DNA of 57,378 nucleotides from an uncultured Gammaproteobacteria bacterium. Lineage in GTDB: Bacteria; Patescibacteriota; Patescibacteriia; UBA9934; CAZDDW01. The notes under the pieces are model-generated. The model was not told the origin of the DNA. It saw only the letters and a list, made by a program, of their open reading frames with translations, and searched no databases. The DNA lies in the NCBI GenBank assembly GCA_964504365.1, contig CAZDDW010000001.1, forward strand, positions 1-57,378, given 5' to 3'. Shown one piece after another: positions 1 to 9,054 of the stretch (its first letter is position 1; each line of letters starts with the position of its first letter). The position numbers and the translations under genes were made by a program.

Positions 1-9
1 GGGAAGAAA

Positions 10-258
10 ATGTATCAATTCAGAACTTCTGGTGGAGTTCCTCCGTCGCTCGATCGGGAAGCAATGCAACGCTTCCGCGATCGCGAGAAGGATCGCAAGA
101 TCGGCGTGGCCGCAGCCAAGGCGCGTGGGGAGAGCATCTTCGCACCGCTGATCCCGGCCGAGGGGCACGCCGACGACGTGTTCCAGCCCATGCCCACGGC
201 CCTGACGGCCACGGGCACCCCGGTCTTCGAGGCCGTGCTGGCCAATACCCAGTCCTAG
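10..258 (+). CDS. hypothetical protein (82 aa; may be 5'-truncated)
   Basis: GC-rich ORF on the same strand as all island genes; no recognisable motif. Confidence 0.55.
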   Translation: MYQFRTSGGVPPSLDREAMQRFRDREKDRKIGVAAAKARGESIFAPLIPAEGHADDVFQPMPTALTATGTPVFEAVLANTQS

Positions 259-282
259 AACCCAAGATCCCTGAAAGGGGGG

Positions 283-630
283 ATGATGTACCCGATCTTC
301 AAGATCGAGGATCTGGTGGTCGTCCTGCCGTCTGCTCATGCCGAGCGGGCAGGAGAACTGCTGGACGAAGAGTGGATCTTCCTGATCGCCAACACTGACC
401 TGGCCGTGATGAGCAGCCAGCGCCTGTTGCACGACGCCCGGCTGGAACCCACCGTGGTCATCCAGATTCAGGGTGACGAGCTACAAGAGGCGATGGACGA
501 GCTGATCGCAGCCGAGCGTCCGGATGGCACCGAGGTCATCTGGGACAACCTGTCCCTGTTCAACGAAGAGCCCGACGAAGAGCCGGCACAGATCGAACCC
601 CGTACGATCGTCTGGCCTCGCGCGGCCTAG
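283..630 (+). CDS. hypothetical acidic protein (115 aa)
   Basis: Purine-rich SD-like AAAGGGGGG before ATG; GC-rich third positions like neighbours. Confidence 0.7.
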   Translation: MMYPIFKIEDLVVVLPSAHAERAGELLDEEWIFLIANTDLAVMSSQRLLHDARLEPTVVIQIQGDELQEAMDELIAAERPDGTEVIWDNLSLFNEEPDEEPAQIEPRTIVWPRAA

Positions 631-695
631 AGTCCTTTTCCACCCACCCTCACTCACCCTGAACCAGACGCCGCTACGCGTCGACGGTTCAGGGC

Positions 696-810
696 CCTGC
701 CAGAGATTCTGAGAGAAGTAGAGAGTAGAAAGTTGAAAGTAGAAAGAAACAAATCTAGTTCCTTTCTACTATCTACCATCTACTTTCTACCCCTCGGAGC
801 CCCTGGCAGG
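696..810 (+). repeat. CCAC-family hairpin copy H1, long form with heptad-repeat insert
   Basis: cctgccag...ctggcagg outer stem; inner gtagagagtagaaagttgaaagtagaaag / ctttctactatctaccatctactttctac arms. Confidence 0.9.
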
Positions 811-966
811 TCCAAACTACAACGAGAAAGTTATGGCGAGAGATGATAAACTATTGTAGTGAGAGGGCGGTCATTACAACTTAATATCCAAGGCACGTGA
901 ACATTTGTTCGTGTATCTTGGAATCAACATCAGGATGAGCCTGGTGTTGAGGAGGTCGCACAGCTT

Positions 967-1038
967 GGAGGTATCAAAATGAAACTGTGCAAAAGGTGGT
1001 AGTCGGAACCACCTAAAACAAACCGGCCGGCTTGAGCG
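967..1038 (+). promoter_or_regulatory. SD-led 7-codon ORF (MKLCKRW, 979-1002) overlapping an H-type pseudoknot
   Basis: GGAGGT 967-972; stem aggtggt/accacct; loop gtcgg pairs with ccggc 1023-1027 after an A-rich linker. Confidence 0.6.
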
Positions 1039-1134
1039 CCGCTGATTGGGGACTGCACCATTGTGGTGCGAAATCTGGCAGAAATGTCAGTGCGGCTGTG
1101 ACGCAGCTGTAGAAGGGGTATGTTCACCTAACAA

Positions 1135-1159
1135 ACTCATAAAATGTGAGTTCTTTTTT
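1135..1159 (+). terminator. terminator-like hairpin with U-tract
   Basis: actcat-aaa-atgtgagt-like stem followed by tctttttt. Confidence 0.45.
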
Positions 1160-1279
1160 AAAAAAAAGGAGAACATCCTTGTGCATTGTGCACAACGTGC
1201 TTCGGCACGAAAGCAAAACGTTAATCATACGTCAGACCCTTCACCCAAATAGAACGTCAGCAAAAGCTCAGGCTCTGTT

Positions 1280-1930
1280 TTTCCTGGTGACAGACCAGGT
1301 GGATCTGCTCGATCTATATGCTAGAGCAAAAGCGCCACCAAGGTTGTCTATGATCTGAGGTGGTGGTGGATACGCGGCAATTGCCTGCTGCGTTGAAGCT
1401 GGAATAGTAGAGGCCGGCAAGTGCCCGGACCCAAAAGAGTGTTATCAAGGGTCCTCACGAGGGATTCAGTTCTCAAAAGAGAGCAGCACTCACCATATCT
1501 GCTTGGCAAGCAGGTCTGTGGGCATTCACGGATGAGGACCAATGAGCAAGTGAAACTAGCAGTGCTTTGTAGAGAATCCCCGCCACCGGACTTTAGTGCC
1601 GGGGTTGCTGCGTTTAACGGCGCGTAGTGAAGGGGTACAACCCAACGTCCAGCATTGTGTTGGACAAAACTGTCAGCCCTCGCCTTGCCAGATTCAGTTC
1701 TGGAAGAAAAGGAGGGTGAGGAGGGTGGCATCTCCTTGATAAAAAACATGGCCAAAAAAAGCTCGTTCAAGGCATGTTAGGGAATCCTGTTTTGCGGGAT
1801 CAGCCACAGGAAGGTATAAAGGCCGGACAAGGAGTACGGCCTGGAGCCTAGGCAATGGGTATATTGTGTAGGATATGAACGGGGCATGTTCGCTTCCGTA
1901 ATATTCTTCCCCTGTTGCGACAAATCCTGG
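1280..1930 (+). ncRNA. large structured non-coding RNA, copy 1 (family unidentified)
   Basis: No credible CDS; 72/75 nt identical block with 9262-9336; compensatory changes against copies 2 and 3; ends approximate. Confidence 0.75.
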
Positions 1931-1973
1931 TGATAGAGAAATCGAATTAGAACCCAACACCCTGGAGGTAATC

Positions 1974-4343
1974 ATGGGTCGCAAGAGCAGACGTCAGATC
2001 GTCTACCTACCGCAGGACAGCGGTAACCCCTTGTCGGCCCGGGATCTGGGTGGCAAGGGTGCGGGACTAGTGGCCATGGTGCGCGAAGGTGTGCCTGTCC
2101 CGCCGGTGTTCACGGTGCGTACCACTGTGGCCCGGGCCTACGCAGAGAACGAACGCCTCCCGGATCGCATCGGGTGGCAGATGAAACGCGGAATCCGGAG
2201 CCTGGAGCGGGCGACCGGACGTTTCTTCGGAAGCGTTCGCAAGCCCCTCCTGGTTTCGGTCCGCAGCGGAGCCCAGGTTTCCATGCCTGGGATGATGGAT
2301 ACGGTTCTCAACCTCGGCCTGAACCCGGACACAGTCCAGGGTTTGATCAAGCTGACCAATGACGAGCGTTTCGCCTACGACTGCTACCGGCGGTTCCTGG
2401 CGCAGTTCGCCACGGTCGTGCTCGGTATGGAGACCGAGAAGTTCGACAAGGCTTTGGCTGAGGCACTGCAGCGGAATAAGGTTGACGACCAGCGTCAGCT
2501 TTCGGCCGCGTCTCAGCTGGCCATGTGTGGTCACTACCGTTCGCTGATCGAGGAGTACCTCGGCGAGGACATGATCGACGACGCTTACGAACAGTTGGTC
2601 CTGGCCCTGGTCGCGGTCTGCAAGAGCTGGAACAGTGACCGCGCCCAGACTTACCGCCGCGAGCATCAGCTCCCGGACTGGTGGGGCACGGCAGTCAACG
2701 TGCAGACCATGGTCTTCGGCAATGCCGGGGACGATTCCTGTACTGGTGTGGTCTTCAGCCGCAACGTGTCCACGGGCGAGCCCGGGCTCTACGGTGAGTT
2801 CCTGGTCAACGCTCAGGGCGAAGACGTGGTTGACGGCAAGCACAACGCGCTGCCGATTTCGGACATGGCCGACTGGAACGAGCGGCTCTACCAGGAGCTG
2901 CAGCGACAAGTGGCCAAGCAGGAGCGTCGGTTGAACGACGTGGCCGACGTGGAGTTCACCGTGCAGAAAGGTCGGCTCTGGATCCTGCAGTCCCGCACGG
3001 CCAAGCGTACACCGCTGGCTGCGGTGACCATCGCTTACGACATGGTTCAGGAAGGTACCTGGACCAAGACTGAAGCTCTGGCCTCGGTTGGTTCGGAACA
3101 GTTGGAGGCTCTCTCTCGCCCCCGCATTGATCCGGATCATCTGGCCGAGCACGTTGAGGACGGTGTCAAGGTCTATCGTGGTCTGCCAGTTTCCTTCGGG
3201 GGAGTGGCTGGTCGAGTAGTGACCAGTTCGCAGGCTGCAGTCAAAGCAGCCAAGAACAAGACCGAGCCGGTCATTCTGGTTCTTCCGGATACCACACCCA
3301 AGGATCTGGCTGGCATGATCGCGGCTGACGCTATCGTCACCATGACCGGTGGCACCAGTTGTCACGCGGCTGTGGTCGCGCGCGAGCTGAACAAGCCGTG
3401 CGTGGTCGGGGTCAAGGATCTGATGGTCCTGGATCATCAGATCCTGTCCATGGATGGCAGTCTGGGTGTGGTTTTCGGTGTTTCGGTCCAGATGATCGAG
3501 CCGGCCAAGACCAAGGCCACGGCCGTGTTCAAGAGCTGGGTCCATCACGCTGAGCGCAAGCTGCAGCTGGTCAACCCGGTCGCACGGCTGAACTTCGACC
3601 TGGTCACCGGCGACAGTCTGAACGTAAGCACAGCAATAAACGACTTCTACCTCGCAGGTGCCATGGAAGTGGCAGCTCGAGGCACGGCACTTCACCACGC
3701 GGCCGTGAGTCTGAAACAGCGTGTTCACCATCAGGTGGCCGAGCACATCGCCATGTACCTGGTCGTTGCCGTGTCCGGTGAGCTGCGGCACCTCTTCGAC
3801 AAGGGTCTTGACGGATACCGCTCGGTTCAGGAAAAGGCCGAACAGCTGGCCAACAAGTTCGGTGTACATCGTAGTGGCAGCAACCGGCCCGGTGCGCAGA
3901 TGGACGCGGTCAGTCGGCTGAAGGGGTTGTCTCCCCAAGACCATGTCCAGTACCTACAGCTGGCCGTCGAAGTCTTCGATAACCCCGATGTTCACTGGAG
4001 AGGCTCCAACATCGGTGGTCAGAAGTGGGCCCGTATTGCCGAGGCCGCGCTGCACTATCTGACCGGCAAACTGAACGCGACAGCCTTTGCTGACCACGCC
4101 TTCGACCTGAAGCACAACGGCGGCCTGGTCTTCAACAAGCACAGTATGGTCGCGGCTTATCCCAACACCGTTTACCGGCAGCTGGATGCCAAGAAGATGG
4201 CCCGTGGTGTGCACGAGATGATCCGTGCGCTCGAGAACACTGGTCATCGCACCTTCTCGGAGCAGGTGCTGACTGTTAGCCATCGCGGCGAGCGTATGGG
4301 GATCTGGCAGGCTGAGGCCCGCCGATTCGGCATCGCCGCTTGA
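1974..4343 (+). CDS. PPDK-like dikinase (ATP-grasp + phospho-His domain) with non-PPDK C-terminal domain
   Basis: LGGKGAGL, PLLVSVRSGAQVSMPGMMDTVLNLGLN, NAQGEDVV, GGTSCHAAVVARE motifs; SD GGAGGT; C-terminal ~280 aa is not a PEP/pyruvate TIM barrel. Confidence 0.85.
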   Translation: MGRKSRRQIVYLPQDSGNPLSARDLGGKGAGLVAMVREGVPVPPVFTVRTTVARAYAENERLPDRIGWQMKRGIRSLERATGRFFGSVRKPLLVSVRSGAQVSMPGMMDTVLNLGLNPDTVQGLIKLTNDERFAYDCYRRFLAQFATVVLGMETEKFDKALAEALQRNKVDDQRQLSAASQLAMCGHYRSLIEEYLGEDMIDDAYEQLVLALVAVCKSWNSDRAQTYRREHQLPDWWGTAVNVQTMVFGNAGDDSCTGVVFSRNVSTGEPGLYGEFLVNAQGEDVVDGKHNALPISDMADWNERLYQELQRQVAKQERRLNDVADVEFTVQKGRLWILQSRTAKRTPLAAVTIAYDMVQEGTWTKTEALASVGSEQLEALSRPRIDPDHLAEHVEDGVKVYRGLPVSFGGVAGRVVTSSQAAVKAAKNKTEPVILVLPDTTPKDLAGMIAADAIVTMTGGTSCHAAVVARELNKPCVVGVKDLMVLDHQILSMDGSLGVVFGVSVQMIEPAKTKATAVFKSWVHHAERKLQLVNPVARLNFDLVTGDSLNVSTAINDFYLAGAMEVAARGTALHHAAVSLKQRVHHQVAEHIAMYLVVAVSGELRHLFDKGLDGYRSVQEKAEQLANKFGVHRSGSNRPGAQMDAVSRLKGLSPQDHVQYLQLAVEVFDNPDVHWRGSNIGGQKWARIAEAALHYLTGKLNATAFADHAFDLKHNGGLVFNKHSMVAAYPNTVYRQLDAKKMARGVHEMIRALENTGHRTFSEQVLTVSHRGERMGIWQAEARRFGIAA

Positions 4344-4517
4344 ACGATACAACATCAGTACATTCACGGAGGTGAAACACGAGTTCCAGTGGGCGCGACC
4401 GACATCGCGCTCACTGGACTCCTTAAATGAGCTTCCCGGACGTTAGTGTTCCGGGAAGTTGATCGAGGAGAATTGATAAAGCGGCCAAATCGCCGCACGA
4501 TATACGGAGGAAGAACG

Positions 4518-5003
4518 ATGAGAAGCATTCCGCATAGCGAGCGTACGGGTGTCGCGATACAGATCGGTCCACACACGGTTCACGCCGGTGGTGGTAGCTT
4601 CATGCAGCCCGGTGACGTCAACGGTTACGACGTGGTCGTTCCGCTGGCCGGCCGTCTGCCCGACGGTGCCGAGCTGACCGACGACCAGGAGCGCTTCGAG
4701 CTGGAGCTCGAGGACTTCGGTGGTGTACCCAAGGACTGGGAGCAGATTCTGCGCGAGCAGGTCATCCCTCTCCTGGAGCAGGGCAAGAGCCTGCTGGCAT
4801 TCTGTGCCTGGGGGCAGGGGCGGACCGGGACTTTCCTGGCCTCGCTCATGGCCATCCTCGAGCCGAATGTCGACGATCCCGTCCTGGAGCTGCGCGAGCG
4901 GTACACCATGGAGGCGGTCGAGACCCAGACCCAGGCCCGCGCGGTCTTCGCCATCAAGGGTATCAAGGAGTTGCCCGAGGTGCACCAGCGCCTGCGGAAG
5001 TAG
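4518..5003 (+). CDS. protein-tyrosine/dual-specificity phosphatase family protein
   Basis: CX5R loop FCAWGQGRTG, downstream VETQTQ (ETxxQ-type); SD GGAGGA before ATG 4518. Confidence 0.85.
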   Translation: MRSIPHSERTGVAIQIGPHTVHAGGGSFMQPGDVNGYDVVVPLAGRLPDGAELTDDQERFELELEDFGGVPKDWEQILREQVIPLLEQGKSLLAFCAWGQGRTGTFLASLMAILEPNVDDPVLELRERYTMEAVETQTQARAVFAIKGIKELPEVHQRLRK

Positions 5004-5037
5004 TTCCACAACCAGAACCTTAGCCCGGAAGGACTAG

Positions 5038-5487
5038 ATGAGCAGTAAGTTCGAGATGATCGGACCCGGAAACCAGAACTATACGGTTTTGGCTGGAAGC
5101 AGTCGTGGCCGTGTTGGGTTCTGGATATCGGATCTTGATGGTCAGGCTCGTATTCGGGTCGAGTTCAGGAAAGGTGTTATCGGTAAGATCGAGGGCATAC
5201 TGCATTGGACTTGTTCTGGTCCTAGTGATTTTGTGGCTTACACCCGAAATCAGGGTGCAACAGAGCAGGCCTTGAAAGATGCGCTTACGGCTCTAGGTAT
5301 CAAGGAGATGGGGTTCGGTGATACGATGCCAGCCGGGCTGAGCCTGAACTTCGAAGCCCCACACTGGGCCATCGGCTTGATCATGCCCAAGTACGCGGGG
5401 TTGACTCGAGTACAAGTCGAGGCTAGGCAATCCTTGCCAGCCGTTCGTGTGCTGGCAGCCAGGATTCGCAACGCCCTGGTCACATAG
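5038..5487 (+). CDS. hypothetical protein, member of island paralog family
   Basis: Shares YTVLA...VG...RIRVE pattern with 5735 and 7949 products; stop TAG lies in the repeat tagttctttggaag. Confidence 0.75.
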   Translation: MSSKFEMIGPGNQNYTVLAGSSRGRVGFWISDLDGQARIRVEFRKGVIGKIEGILHWTCSGPSDFVAYTRNQGATEQALKDALTALGIKEMGFGDTMPAGLSLNFEAPHWAIGLIMPKYAGLTRVQVEARQSLPAVRVLAARIRNALVT

Positions 5488-5556
5488 TTCTTTGGAAGCG
5501 TTTTTGCGGCGCAATTCTCGCGCCGCACTTCAACATCCCGAGTACAGACTCGGGAT

Positions 5557-5671
5557 CCCACCAGAGTTTCGGAGAAAAAGTAGAGAGTAGAAAGTTGAAA
5601 GTAGAAAGGAATAAATTTGTCCCTCTCTACTATCTACCATCTACTTTCTACTTCTCGGAGTCCCTGGTGGG
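5557..5671 (+). repeat. CCAC-family hairpin copy H2, long form
   Basis: cccaccagagtttcggag...ctcggagtccctggtggg with heptad insert. Confidence 0.9.
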
Positions 5672-5734
5672 AGAAAATGTGAGTAAGCGGGAAAACAGTT
5701 CCGTGATCCTCACCAACGATCCCACAACAGCGCT

Positions 5735-6376
5735 ATGGAAGCGCTGAAACACGAGGAGGGCATCATGCCCAGCTACGCCTACGACGCCACGAGCAAGCGC
5801 CGGGACATCGCCAACGTGCCCGGCACCGAGCGCACCCACGAGTACCAGGTTCTGGCCATCACGCCCAAGGCCGTCGTGGCCCTGCGACACGACGTCGGTC
5901 GCAGCTGCTGGCGTATCCGCGTCGAGCCGCTGTCCGAGGCGGCCGCCGAGGAGATGCGCCCGTACTTCCCGAAGATGGTCGGTTGGAGTACCGACAGTGG
6001 CTGGAAGCATCCGGACCACCAGCCTCGGTTCAGCATCACCGCCCGGGACGCCGACACCAGGGACCGTGACAAGAAGCTGGTCCTGGCCCTCGAGGTCGCC
6101 CAGTCCGAGGGTCGGATCGTGCGTCGCTTCCGCGAGCACCTGCTCGAGCGGAAGACCGAAGCGCGTCCCGAGGGTGTGAACTGCACCCGGTGCGCGAACA
6201 CGGCCTGCGTGTTCAACGGCACGCCCACGATGATGCTCCCCGGCGAGCACGACCCGACCGGGTCCAAGCTGCGGCACAACACCTGCGGTGACGCGGACAT
6301 GGACGACGTCATCCTGAGCTGGCTGCGCCGCGACGCCGACACCGAGCTCGAGGCCGCCAAGGCCGCCGAGGCCTAG
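5735..6376 (+). CDS. hypothetical protein, paralog family, with C-terminal Cys cluster
   Basis: YQVLAITPKAVVALR...RIRVE; CTRCANTAC...HNTC possible metal site; true start may be ATG ~5765 after GGAGG. Confidence 0.75.
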   Translation: MEALKHEEGIMPSYAYDATSKRRDIANVPGTERTHEYQVLAITPKAVVALRHDVGRSCWRIRVEPLSEAAAEEMRPYFPKMVGWSTDSGWKHPDHQPRFSITARDADTRDRDKKLVLALEVAQSEGRIVRRFREHLLERKTEARPEGVNCTRCANTACVFNGTPTMMLPGEHDPTGSKLRHNTCGDADMDDVILSWLRRDADTELEAAKAAEA

Positions 6377-6476
6377 GGTAGCGCGCTAGACCAGTACAGC
6401 ACTGATCAACAAGTTCTTTTCGTTAACTTGCCTCGAGCACGTCGAGGCCTGCCCGGAACTATTCGTAGTTCCGGGA

Positions 6477-6591
6477 CCCACCAGAGTTTCTGAGAAAAGT
6501 AGAGAGTAGAAAGTTGAAGGTAGAAAGAAACAAATTTTGTCCCTTTCCACTATCTACCATCTACTTTCTACCCCTCAGAGTCCCTGGTGGG
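6477..6591 (+). repeat. CCAC-family hairpin copy H3, long form
   Basis: cccaccagagtttctgag...ctcagagtccctggtggg with heptad insert. Confidence 0.9.
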
Positions 6592-6634
6592 TCAATGGTT
6601 GGCCCAATTCCACGAAAGACATAAGGAGGTCATC

Positions 6635-6700
6635 ATGTGGAAACGTCAAATGAAGGCGGGAATCGGAACTCGCCATCGAAAAGAAAATCCGGTCAGCTGA
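6635..6700 (+). CDS. small SD-led ORF (21 aa, MWKRQMKAGIGTRHRKENPVS)
   Basis: Strong SD AAGGAGGT just upstream; same position relative to the pseudoknots as the leader ORFs of copies 1 and 3. Confidence 0.35.
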   Translation: MWKRQMKAGIGTRHRKENPVS

Positions 6701-6722
6701 GCACATGGAGTGCAAGCAGCTG

Positions 6723-6814
6723 GTGGGAATCAGATCCCACTGAAAATAAATCTGGTCGGCCTACGGGTCGGTGGAGGTTGGATCCCACTATAAATAAACC
6801 AACCGGCTTGAACG
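6723..6814 (+). promoter_or_regulatory. two tandem H-type pseudoknots
   Basis: gtggga/tcccac with loop atcaga pairing tctggt; gtgg/ccac with loop ggttgg pairing ccaacc; A-rich 10-nt linkers. Confidence 0.6.
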
Positions 6815-6839
6815 ACCGTGGGGCAATAAAGAGGGCTCT

Positions 6840-6865
6840 AACCCTCTGTTGTCAGAGGGTTTTTT
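6840..6865 (+). terminator. intrinsic terminator
   Basis: aaccctctg-ttgt-cagagggtt followed by T run. Confidence 0.7.
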
Positions 6866-7119
6866 AAAATGAAGGCTATAAAGGCCAAACCGCAGCTTGT
6901 TGCGGATAGCTAAACGTTAACCCTACAACCCATCAGCTCTTTTCGCCCAGAAGAAGCCACAACTGTTTCAAGTTCACCCACTCGACCACCGCACACCAAA
7001 AACACAAAAAACAAAGACGAAGTGCGATTGGTTGAGGAAGTAGAGCTGTCAGCACGAAATTGGACGGACTCTGCGGACGGGGTATACCGCGAGCGTCGAA
7101 GTGACCCAAAATCGACGTG

Positions 7120-7810
7120 CTCATAGGGGGTAGTGCCCCCTGGGTCAAGCCATCAAAGGTTGCACTGACCTGTGATGGTGGTTCGTAGTGCGGGAATTGC
7201 CTCCTGCGCTCGGGCTAAAGACCAAAGGAGTCAAAGCGGCCGTTCAAGTGAACGGTATATGTTAACACCGCTTGGCGAGCGGTTCCGTTGGTAATAACGG
7301 ACAAGGACCAACTGGTTGTGAAATCAGGCGGTAGCTAGTCAGAAATCAGCCTGGGGTAACTCAGGTTCAGGGCCGAGTCGATTATGTTTCTTAACATAAT
7401 AGCGGCGTCAACCCTGATTAAATGTTCTGTGCCGAAGTGGCCGGTCGGGTTTGTATGTGGATTAGTGTAAATAACATAATGTTGTTAATTTACATCCCAC
7501 CTTTGCAAACTCAAGGGGTTGCACCCTTGCAAGCGACAGCTAAAGAGATTGACTAGAGATTGTTTGAGGAATCAATTCGGAAGGGATCAGCCTCAGGAGG
7601 GTGAAAGGTTCGAGCGCGAGTTCGGGCCGGAGCCTAGGCAGCGGGTAGATTGAGCTCATAATCGACAGGTCTGCTTTCATACCTAGTGGTGGATGGCAGG
7701 CATTGGGTACGGGGGTCGAGTGAAGGCTGATGGTTTTCGGACCTGAAGCTGAAGAACTGCACGTCAGAGAAAAGCCCAAGGTTGTGAGTCCCTACTGCGA
7801 CAGATCCTGA
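7120..7810 (+). ncRNA. large structured non-coding RNA, copy 2 (most diverged)
   Basis: Same ordered blocks: aagccatc..gatggtgg, gcttggcgagc, ccgtt-ggtaat-aacgg, gggatcagcctcaggagggt, agcctaggcagcggg, ctgcgacagatcctga. Confidence 0.7.
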
Positions 7811-7887
7811 AAATAGCAACACCCCTCTTTCGGCCGTTCGGCCACAAAGTTCTTTGGAAGCGTCTTGCGGTTAGTCTCCCTGACCGC

Positions 7888-7931
7888 CTTCCACCAGAGT
7901 TTCTGATTTCGATCGGAGTTCCTGGTGGAAG
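7888..7931 (+). repeat. CCAC-family hairpin copy H4, short form
   Basis: cttccaccagagtttctga-tttcga-tcggagttcctggtggaag. Confidence 0.9.
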
Positions 7932-7948
7932 CAAGGAGGAGAGACAAC

Positions 7949-8731
7949 ATGAAATCGTTCCAGATGTACGGTGCATATGGCAGCGATTACTTCGTTGTCG
8001 CGTGCACAAAGCTGGGAAAAATTGGTTGGAAAGACTCAGGTAAGGGCTATCAACACGTTGAGGTGCAGGGTCACGAAGAGGATGTCCTGGACTTTGATTT
8101 CGACAAGCTGTATGAGAAGTTGCCTGGCTGGAAGATCAACGAACTGTCCAACGCCTGGGTCTCGACCATGGTCCCGAAAGGACCTGAGCTCACAAAAGCA
8201 CTGGTTGAAGGTCTTCGTGCCTTGGGCTTAGAAGGGTTGGAGGTAAATCCAGAGGCTGGTCCGTGGTTCGGAGGAGTGGTCAGGAAGGCTTTCGGCCAAG
8301 GCCCATTCGACATGGAGGATGTGTCTGGTCTCAAGTACACAGTGGTTGTTGCCACACCTTGGGCCAGGGTCGGACTGAGAACCGATCAGGATCATCAAGT
8401 TGTCCGTATCGAGATGGATGACGGGCCAATGGCTTACGCAGCTGACAGAGGCTTCACTCCAAACTGGGAGTTTTTTAAAGGATCTGGACAACGACCTATC
8501 TGCTTCACAGCTACGGCCTTCAGTAAAGAGCAGGCCGAACAGTTGTTGACCAGCGCATTTCGGGCAATCGAAGCTGAATTCGATCTGCTTAACCCTGACT
8601 TGACCGAGACCAGGGTCAATCCGGAGATCAGTGGTTGGATCATGGAGTTGATCAAGGCTGAGTCCAGGATTGAGTTGAGAGCCATGCTCGATCACGCCCG
8701 CAAGTTAGCTGCTCGCATCAAAGTTGCATAG
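7949..8731 (+). CDS. hypothetical protein with two tandem copies of the island paralog domain
   Basis: SD AAGGAGG; halves FQMYG..DYFVVA..GKIG and FDMED..KYTVVVATPWARVG; both end in (V/L)NPE..(P/G)W. Confidence 0.8.
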   Translation: MKSFQMYGAYGSDYFVVACTKLGKIGWKDSGKGYQHVEVQGHEEDVLDFDFDKLYEKLPGWKINELSNAWVSTMVPKGPELTKALVEGLRALGLEGLEVNPEAGPWFGGVVRKAFGQGPFDMEDVSGLKYTVVVATPWARVGLRTDQDHQVVRIEMDDGPMAYAADRGFTPNWEFFKGSGQRPICFTATAFSKEQAEQLLTSAFRAIEAEFDLLNPDLTETRVNPEISGWIMELIKAESRIELRAMLDHARKLAARIKVA

Positions 8732-8770
8732 TTCTTTGGAAGCGTCTTGCGGCGCAATTCTCGCGCCGCA

Positions 8771-8882
8771 CTTCCACCAGAGTTTCTGAGAAAAGTAGAG
8801 AGTAGAAAGTTGAAAGTAGAAAGAAACAAATTTAGTTCCTTTCTACCATCTACTTTCTACCCCTCGGAATCCCTGGTGGAAG
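8771..8882 (+). repeat. CCAC-family hairpin copy H5, long form lacking one heptad
   Basis: cttccaccag...ctggtggaag; right arm 7 nt shorter than H1-H3. Confidence 0.9.
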
Positions 8883-8889
8883 TATGAAT

Positions 8890-8959
8890 GGAGGTAATTA
8901 AGATGGAACAGTTTGAATGGTGGTAGCCGGACCACGTTAAAAAAGCGGTCGCTTGAGCG
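8890..8959 (+). promoter_or_regulatory. SD-led 7-codon ORF (MEQFEWW, 8903-8926) overlapping an H-type pseudoknot
   Basis: GGAGGT 8890-8895; gtggt/accac stem; loop gccg pairs with cggt 8946-8949; same gcttgagcg tail as copy 1. Confidence 0.6.
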
Positions 8960-9054
8960 AAGTTGATGAGATAATATTGGTAAATAGTTTTTAAAAAAAT
9001 TATTTACTTCTTGTTCTAATAGGACATCAACACAGTTCAAGTCTGGCTTAAGAT

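Follow-up and report, generated by a model that had tools for sequence, protein, structure and literature searches.

A tiny reading frame and pseudoknot at the 5' end of an uncatalogued family of large RNAs: a candidate translation-coupled leader

In leader-peptide and arrest leaders such as trpL/hisL, tnaC, ermCL, cat and cmlA, a short open reading frame (ORF) led by a Shine-Dalgarno (SD) sequence is located at the 5' end of the leader. In attenuators of this type the position of the ribosome on the last codons picks the helix that is formed, and a hairpin with a T-run lies downstream. A similar layout was found in the DNA analysed here, the first 57 kb (57,378 nucleotides, referred to as the window) of contig CAZDDW010000001.1 from an uncultured bacterium placed in the Patescibacteriota by GTDB (genome of 1.07 Mb, ~46% GC, 19 contigs). 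The window harbours three mutually homologous non-coding stretches (~1150–1960, ~6850–7830 and ~8960–9600; large RNA copies 1 to 3), and at the start of each one an SD-led tiny ORF is associated with one or several compact pseudoknots, all on the forward strand. This module is tentatively read, with confidence slightly short of even, as a translation-coupled switch that forms the translated sensor part, at the 5' end, of a large leader RNA acting in cis. From its conservation, the tiny reading frame itself is probably a translated regulatory leader.

The three copies belong to an island covering positions 1 to ~13200 (50–63% GC), in which co-oriented cassettes are separated by long hairpins. 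In copy 1, the SD sequence GGAGGT (967–972) is followed after a spacer of 6 nt by an ORF of seven codons encoding MKLCKRW (979–1002, stop codon TAG at 1000–1002). Copy 3 displays the same SD (8890–8895), a spacer of 7 nt and a seven-codon ORF for MEQFEWW (8903–8926, TAG at 8924–8926). The SD of copy 2, again GGAGGT (6625–6630), stands 4 nt upstream of a longer ORF of 21 codons (6635–6700, TGA at 6698–6700) with the translation MWKRQMKAGIGTRHRKENPVS. An SD and a short ORF had been proposed for each copy in an initial annotation of this DNA, and all of them were recovered in place. The leader SDs equal those of real genes of the island, for example GGAGGTAATCATG at 1961–1976, and occupy the position where a cassette gene starts, directly after the inter-cassette hairpin. 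In copies 1 and 3, the last two codons of the ORF coincide with stem 1 of a pseudoknot and the stop codon falls within its loop 1, while the ORF of copy 2 traverses the first pseudoknot of that copy (c2a) and ends at the TGA of its tail. The Trp codons of copies 1 and 3 are forced by the GGTGG stem, in agreement with a reservation already made in the initial annotation; the GG-rich stem of c2a is read in another frame. Regulatory codons matching the controlled pathway were not found, as Trp equals the stem and the operon, which contains a dikinase and a phosphatase of the dual-specificity (DSP) type, has no Trp genes.

Five H-type pseudoknot units were identified. Unit c1 (995–1027) consists of stem 1 GGTGG 995–999/CCACC 1009–1013 and stem 2 GTCGG 1002–1006/CCGGC 1023–1027 with an A-rich linker at 1014–1022; each of the two stems is predicted at -5.6 kcal/mol. 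Copy 2 carries three tandem units: c2a (6655–6693; stem 1 GGCGGG/CTCGCC, stem 2 ATCGGA/TCCGGT, A-rich linker of 13 nt), c2b (6723–6756; GTGGG/CCCAC and ATCAGA/TCTGGT) and c2c (6770–6804; GGTGG/CCACT and GGTTGG/CCAACC), the last followed by the tail GGCTTGAACG up to position 6814. The two tandem pseudoknots of copy 2 described initially are both present, and the annotation had missed c2a, which is located entirely within the ORF. The unit of copy 3, c3 (8920–8949), is weak and pairs GTGGT 8920–8924 with ACCAC 8931–8935 and GCCG 8926–8929 with CGGT 8946–8949. The common architecture comprises a G/C-rich stem 1 of 5–6 bp, a loop 1 of 1–2 nt, a stem 2 of 4–6 bp, a junction of 1–3 nt and a linker of 9–13 nt with 6–9 A, which confirms the A-rich linkers noted previously. 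Four of the five units have GGTGG in stem 1, whether an ORF is present or not. The five stem-2 sequences are all different and the loops vary as well (loop 1 UA, AA or A; loop 2 AA, A, U or AUC).

Stem 2 was evaluated by shuffling the downstream 28 nt, which resulted in p values of 0.05 (c1), 0.016 (c2a), 0.006 (c2b), 0.09 (c2c) and 0.55 (c3), and in a combined Fisher p of ~7e-4 over the five units. Comparison of c2b with c2c showed that stem 1 and the linker are kept, yet five of the six stem-2 pairs are changed on both sides. In a pseudoknot scan the window units reached scores of 10.5–12.5, and c3 reached 8.5; a looser scan of the whole genome gave about one generic match per 35 kb, none of them like the window units. 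Based on the shuffle p values, the c2b/c2c covariation and the scan scores, four units (c1, c2a, c2b and c2c) are solid and c3 is weak. The joint change of loop and partner, claimed earlier for four units, is well supported for c1, c2b and c2c; in c3, stem 2 is at the level of chance.

Searching with the large RNA itself failed to bring up homologs. Exact IUPAC patterns applied to genome, viral and metagenome contigs gave a single chance match (L021), a first covariance model (R1) gave one weak false match (L023) in 400 genomes of the phylum, and nothing useful was obtained by BLAST in 60 relatives, by blastn against phages or by nhmmer with a profile of the three copies. Entry to the relatives was gained through the C-terminal domain of the dikinase, with homologs at 34–40% identity. 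The contigs of these homologs contain gene-free leaders of 1–1.6 kb upstream of the dikinase gene, and the leaders share a 3' motif, CTAGGCGGYGG-loop-CCTGCCGCGACAA, around which a GGAGA/TCTCC helix closes with covariation; the motif is situated 40–130 nt before the next gene, a position also found for the window copies. The latter show the same motif blocks with a loop insert of 53–150 nt. A covariance model of the shared 3' motif (R2) was searched against 401 large genomes (3–9.6 Mb) related to one carrier and matched in 29 of them; the matching genomes often contain two or three matches, in pairs 4–5 kb apart that flank a dikinase-phosphatase cluster. In the window, R2 matched copy 1 at 1820–1934 (E = 0.017, the best match in 14 kb) and copy 3 at 9493–9575, each with a 53-nt loop insert; the same sequence blocks were recognised in copy 2 by block alignment.

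The bodies of the large RNAs extend over 1240–1960 (copy 1, with the 3' motif CTAGGCAATGG...CTGTTGCGACAA shortly 5' of the dikinase start at 1974), 7040–7830 (copy 2, from block alignment) and 9020–9600 (copy 3). They align block by block with compensatory changes. A protein-coding role was rejected for them, every frame holding all three stop codons. Synteny with the loci L027, L029 and L031 includes the dikinase (43–50% identity), the phosphatase (40–45%) and the next gene, coding for a protein related to those encoded at 5765–6376 and 5038–5487; the cluster in the window spans 1974–6376. Besides the window copies, the family includes the loci L027, L029, L031, L056–L061, L068 and L102–L131. 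Homology between the window and these relatives rests on the 3' motif, synteny and the position and length of the ORF, and not on a full-length alignment. Given the 3' motif match and the synteny, the large RNAs of the window are members of an uncatalogued family without a match in Rfam 15, and the island represents a conserved cluster with the order large RNA, dikinase, phosphatase, further genes, large RNA. No Rfam family matched ten of the related loci, none matched window positions 600–10200 either at E ≤ 10 or at the gathering score, and the literature searched holds nothing on this RNA family. The island resembles a copy of the cluster brought into a 1-Mb genome by horizontal transfer. 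The module, initially placed upstream of each large RNA, is better described as its 5' domain than as a separate element.

The mini-ORFs of the window are located 873, 1002 and 595 nt before the 3' motif (copies 1, 2 and 3). Related leaders were inspected for SD-led ORFs of at most nine codons in the zone 450–1300 nt upstream of the motif. Such an ORF was detected in 25 of 40 leaders; mononucleotide shuffles (200 rounds) gave an average of 10 and a maximum of 19, compared to 2 on the reverse strand. No residue of the family ORF is better conserved than Trp at codon 3, which occurs in 17 of the 40 leaders against 0.12 in shuffles and none on the reverse strand. The corresponding peptides are MHWP (six times), MTWRC and MKWRC (twice each) and, once each, MPWP, MCWP, MNWP, MTWP, MTWPL, MTWHI and MHWH. 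The frame is kept through variation of the stop codon (TAA, TGA or TAG), of Pro (CCT or CCG) and of His (CAT or CAC), codon 2 being free, and TGGCC is invariant at the nucleotide level. Two relatives display ORFs of seven codons, the length of window copies 1 and 3: MEPLCRC in L057 and MEPLCSY in L031, which share ATGGAACCTTTATG and differ by TGC/TGT and TGA/TAA. The segment AAGATGGAAC of copy 3 is identical in L057, and the ORFs of the two are ~70% identical over 27 nt without gaps; codons 6–8 of copy 1 (AGG TGG TAG) align with AGG TGC TAA of L057. Thus, an SD-led leader ORF is found in three of three window copies and in 25 of 40 related leaders, and homologs keep SD, ATG and frame, the loss of which had been named in advance as speaking against coupling to the ribosome.

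A helix begins shortly after the ORF in the relatives as well. In 14 of them, helix P1 (xCCGG/CCGGx and covarying versions) starts 5–17 nt after the stop codon and encloses a hairpin P2, followed by an A-rich stretch with (U)CC at its end and by a GAUUGG box. In the alignment of P1/P2 (A7), the paired fraction of cells is 83%, against 31–40% in slid controls, and double changes occur at 11 of 13 pairs; none of 500 shuffles reached the observed score. The compact pseudoknot was not seen in relatives, the scan applied to the window giving no unit with a score of 10 or more in 23 related leaders (4.6 kb), and a plain stem-loop takes its place. The window units hold the same elements, namely UCGGAA, located in loops of units c1 and c2a, and an A-rich stretch terminated by (U)CC; GAUUGG is found at 1045–1050 of copy 1, and the GATTGG box recurs in L102, L127 and L057. 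From these correspondences, the units of the window are the sequence elements of the relatives refolded into a compact pseudoknot. In the subgroup L127, L129, L130 and L131 (~1350–1430), the P2 loop (CUACC, CUGCC or UUGCC) was observed to covary with a segment ~20 nt after P1 (GGUAG, GGCGG or GGCAA). An extended pseudoknot between the P2 loop and a segment 17–24 nt after P1 gave p values of 0.07–0.6 per sequence, and such a fold in the 5' element of the family is suggestive only. In both window and relatives, a ribosome finishing the ORF would be able to reach a helix. Ribosome coupling, as proposed in the initial annotation, is thus supported at the level of comparative sequence analysis, because homologs keep the mini-ORF and because the helix begins near the stop codon.

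The mechanism that would follow can be outlined. A ribosome would load at the strong SD and translate the tiny ORF, and on reaching the last codons and the stop codon it would have to open the helix beginning at that point. When the stop codon occupies the A site, a ribosome covers ~9–12 nt beyond the stop. In the relatives, the terminating ribosome would reach the 5' arm of P1, while in copies 1 and 3 it would remove stem 1 and the 5' arm of stem 2. In copy 2, it would pass through the first of the three pseudoknots and leave the other two intact. Ribosome occupancy, i.e. how often and how long a ribosome stands at termination, would then set the choice between the pseudoknot and an alternative pairing. 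In copies 1 and 3, this alternative would be the tail hairpin, which overlaps the 3' arm of stem 2, making the two folds mutually exclusive. The choice would be relayed downstream either as read-through of the T-run hairpin or through the fold of the ~0.7–1 kb RNA leading into the cassettes, among them the dikinase operon. We infer that translation occurs and that it switches the fold, and the nature of the output and of the signal altering the dwell is conjectured in the same way.

The elements available for such a relay differ between the copies. The tail GCTTGA(G/A)CG follows c1, c2c and c3, in agreement with the three of four units stated initially, and CAGCTGAGC stands instead after c2a. 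In copy 1, the tail CGGCTTGAGCG is followed by the GCTGATTGGGG box (1028–1052), and the predicted tail hairpin CGGC-C-GGC/GCC-GCUG competes with the 3' arm of c1 stem 2; the tail of c3 is CGCTTGAGCG (8950–8959). A TGA within the tail, which reads GCTTGAGCG or GCTGAGC among the three copies, is in frame with the leader ATG (1033–1035 in copy 1, 8954–8956 in copy 3, 6698–6700 in copy 2) and stands behind the TAG in copies 1 and 3. The dikinase gene also terminates in GCTTGAACG (4338–4346). The GCTTGAGCG tail was considered as a -35 promoter box and rejected, no -10 box being found at usable spacing and the promoter scan being empty there; matches of GCTTGAGCG on contig C2 turned out to be tRNA genes.

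Copy 2 possesses a canonical terminator within 6830–6869, made of a 7-bp G/C stem with a tetraloop (CCCTCTG-TTGT-CAGAGGG, 6842–6859, -13 kcal/mol), T6 (6860–6865) and A4, and a terminator-like alignment was also obtained there in the Rfam scan. AGAGGG at 6830–6835 can pair with CCCTCT at 6842–6847 and exclude the terminator stem. Copy 1 has an A/U-rich hairpin of 8 bp (1134–1152) followed by CT6 (T6 at 1154–1159) and A8 (1160–1167); in an alternative pairing, GTTCT/AGAAC encloses the T/A run. In copy 3, an A/U hairpin (8980–9007) with T5A7 in its loop is followed by TTCTTGTTCT up to position 9017, an interrupted T tail that is not canonical. The hairpin with a T-run announced for the units is therefore present in all copies, but as a canonical terminator in copy 2 only. 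On the basis of AGAGGG/CCCTCT against the terminator stem, copy 2 looks like an attenuator, whereas copies 1 and 3 do not; no antiterminator was found in the folds of the latter. A T5-6A4-8 run was observed after the mini-ORF at 1152–1167, 6860–6869 and 8988–8999 and, in relatives, at ~690 of L057 and ~4340 of L031. In copy 3 and L057 this conserved run forms part of a hairpin loop, so that it may constitute an independent motif. Upstream of the T-run hairpin of copy 1, the segment GGTATGTTCACCTAAC at 1118–1129 resembles GGCATAGGTCACCTAC of L057 and could provide a second, distal partner for stem 1 by pairing of its CACCT with AGGTG from the last codons of the mini-ORF.

Several observations weigh against a translation-coupled switch. 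Copies 1 and 3 fail a stricter terminator scan that copy 2 passes, and apart from the overlap of stem 2 with the tail hairpin no clear mutually exclusive pairing linking the pseudoknot to the T-run hairpin was found in them. The conserved T6A4-8 run may be no terminator tail at all. The relation between ORF and pseudoknot is not constant, with the stop codon inside the unit for c1 and c3 and an ORF spanning the first pseudoknot in copy 2. The peptides of the window copies are not alike in sequence, and stem 2 of c3 (three G-C pairs and one G-U) is no better than chance. Among the related leaders, 15 of 40 have no ORF by the criteria used, and the conserved TGGCC of the others could reflect a constraint on the RNA and not on coding.

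Part of these observations would be accommodated by a role as 5' stabiliser, in which a ribosome on the SD and mini-ORF, together with the pseudoknot, would shield a processed large RNA from decay that depends on its 5' end, without any switching. This is a serious alternative, albeit on balance an unlikely one. As the island resembles one long co-oriented unit with big hairpins between the cassettes, an RNA released by processing would begin with the SD and mini-ORF; the persistence of SD, start and stop while the peptide varies, as well as A/U-rich hairpins that are poor terminators, would also fit. It does not account for the real terminator and competing hairpin of copy 2, nor for Trp at codon 3 and Pro, Arg or His at codon 4 in the relatives, which go beyond what is needed to park a ribosome. 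A further proposal is that the RNA is purely structural, with architectural pseudoknots and with ORFs as untranslated by-products of the SD-like GGAGG, of GGTGG and of TGGCC. The occurrence of GGTGG in stem 1 irrespective of an ORF, the invariance of TGGCC and the leaders without detectable ORF are in favour of this view. However, SD-ATG spacing and an in-frame stop persist through all three stop codons and through synonymous changes, the 17 ORFs with Trp at codon 3 contrast with 0–0.12 in the controls, and the longer variants MTWRC, MTWHI and MTWPL are hard to explain without translation. We regard a purely structural role as quite unlikely.

A small-ligand riboswitch similar to preQ1-I, in which a metabolite stabilises the unit and controls the terminator, had been suggested in the initial annotation. 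Size and topology of the units (stem 1 of 5 bp, short loop 1, tandem units in copy 2) resemble preQ1-I, and the A-rich 3' linker would suit minor-groove triples. Nevertheless, an Rfam search of the three module loci (623 nt, E ≤ 10) matched no preQ1, SAM-II, fluoride, guanidine or other riboswitch. A conserved binding pocket is not apparent, each unit having its own stem 2 and junction bases, and a plain stem-loop stands in for the pseudoknot in relatives. No SD was found on the 3' arms in the three window copies and no terminator overlaps them, the nearest T-run hairpin being 25–105 nt downstream. The suggestion was not sustained, and a ligand-binding pseudoknot is very improbable. Recoding, with the pseudoknot promoting read-through of TAG and translation ending at the tail TGA, is extremely improbable. 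The tail TGA of copies 1 and 3 is indeed in the ATG frame (1033–1035, 8954–8956) and the ORF of copy 2 ends at the equivalent TGA. Known read-through pseudoknots, however, are located ~8 nt downstream of the stop, whereas stem 1 lies here upstream of and across it, so that a ribosome at TAG would already have melted it; moreover, TAG is the usual stop of island genes and the read-through peptides are dissimilar. Frameshifting by -1 was rejected, as no X XXY YYZ slippery motif precedes stem 1 and TAA 1014 closes the -1 frame of c1.

The translation-coupled switch therefore remains the reading adopted here, and the Trp-Pro-stop ending of relatives gives a lead on why a ribosome might dwell. TnaC depends on Trp and on Pro-stop, and W-P-stop endings are poor termination contexts, as seen with TnaC and with SsrA tagging at C-terminal Pro. 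The ending is to be taken as a lead for the dwell and not as a result. A more specific proposal, which we consider decidedly improbable, is that the ORF of 4–7 codons (M-x-W-P-stop and variants) acts as a minimal termination-arrest peptide. Its dwell would report a small molecule or a translation inhibitor and switch the ~1-kb RNA via the pseudoknot or P1, with the RNA serving as scaffold or substrate of the dikinase-phosphatase pair. If the RNA were a working partner of these enzymes, the presence of several copies per locus and their transfer together with the genes into a 1-Mb genome would be explained.

Further features of the island were recorded. The gene at 1974–4343 encodes a PPDK-like dikinase with a PPDK_N domain, a PEP-utiliser swivel domain and a C-terminal domain without assignment. 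The protein encoded at 7949–8731 is an orphan; further contigs carry only 100% identical strain copies of it, offering no variation. ARAGORN detected neither tmRNA nor tRNA in positions 1–16000. The cassettes are parted by long CCACCAGAG...CTGGTGG hairpins (687–812, 5548–5673, 6468–6593, 8764–8889, 7890–7927 and 9655–9690), and the junction TAGTTCTTTGGAAGCG occurs after protein genes and after RNA copies 2 and 3 alike, as if the RNAs filled gene slots, in a layout like that of RNase III-type processing sites. The conserved 3' domain of all copies contains the palindromes GCCTAGGC and CCTCAGG (7629–7650 and equivalents), by which RNA-RNA dimerisation would be possible. A second pseudoknot-like layout is found within the large RNA of copy 1 at 1718–1754 (GAGGAG / GGTGGCAT / CTCCTT), with an A-rich linker GATAAAAAACATG followed by GCCA that pairs with TGGC of the loop.

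If the translation-coupled reading is true, the element would be a leader-peptide switch of unusual build, with an ORF too short for action in the exit tunnel, a stop codon placed in a pseudoknot and, as output, a kilobase of conserved structured RNA and not a simple terminator. The orphan large RNA of the window becomes a family with at least 40 members in ~30 genomes, with an uncharacterised PPDK-like dikinase and a dual-specificity phosphatase as fixed partner and with two conserved landmarks, the 5' mini-ORF and the covarying 3' motif. The M-x-W-P-stop ORF is a compact candidate for studies of termination pausing, and the family gives handles for genetics, structure probing and the question of the dikinase substrate. 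Measured against Rfam 15 and the literature searched, the element as read here is leader-peptide control of a new type on a new large-RNA family.

The closest described systems differ from it in distinct ways. The Trp-(Pro)-stop ending of the relatives recalls the dependence of TnaC, and copy 2 shares its canonical T-run hairpin with leader-peptide attenuators. In contrast to these, the ORF, with only 4–7 codons, is too short to fill the exit tunnel, an H-type pseudoknot at the stop replaces the 1:2/2:3/3:4 hairpin series, no run of regulatory codons fits the function of the operon, and the leader continues into ~0.7–1 kb of conserved structured RNA instead of 100–200 nt, in several copies per locus. 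With preQ1-I (RF00522), SAM-II, fluoride and guanidine-III riboswitches the window shares a compact H-type unit of 33–39 nt with a G/C-rich stem 1 of 5–6 bp, an A-rich 3' linker that could lie in the minor groove of stem 1 and the possibility of a tandem arrangement; it differs from them by the lack of sequence or covariance-model similarity, by variable loop, junction and stem-2 bases, by the absence of a platform on the 3' arm and by homologous RNAs in which the pseudoknot is missing. The recoding pseudoknots of luteoviruses (BWYV) and retroviruses have equal topology and size, an A-rich loop crossing stem 1 and a location near a stop or ORF, whereas in the window no slippery heptamer is found 5–8 nt upstream, the stop is inside the unit and no downstream frame would be accessed. 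STAB-SD (cryIIIA) and the stalled ribosome on the ermC leader in Bacillus also involve a strong SD near the 5' end of a long untranslated RNA. Here, unlike in those cases, the SD leads a full mini-ORF in which residues are conserved and whose stop codon is associated with a structured element, and stabilisation is putative. Finally, the large RNAs GOLLD, ROOL, OLE and raiA likewise have a highly structured body of several hundred nucleotides, a patchy distribution, a mobile or accessory context and more than one copy per locus; the present family, which has no Rfam match, differs from them in being tied to a single gene cluster, that of the dikinase and phosphatase, and in starting with a mini-ORF that looks translated.

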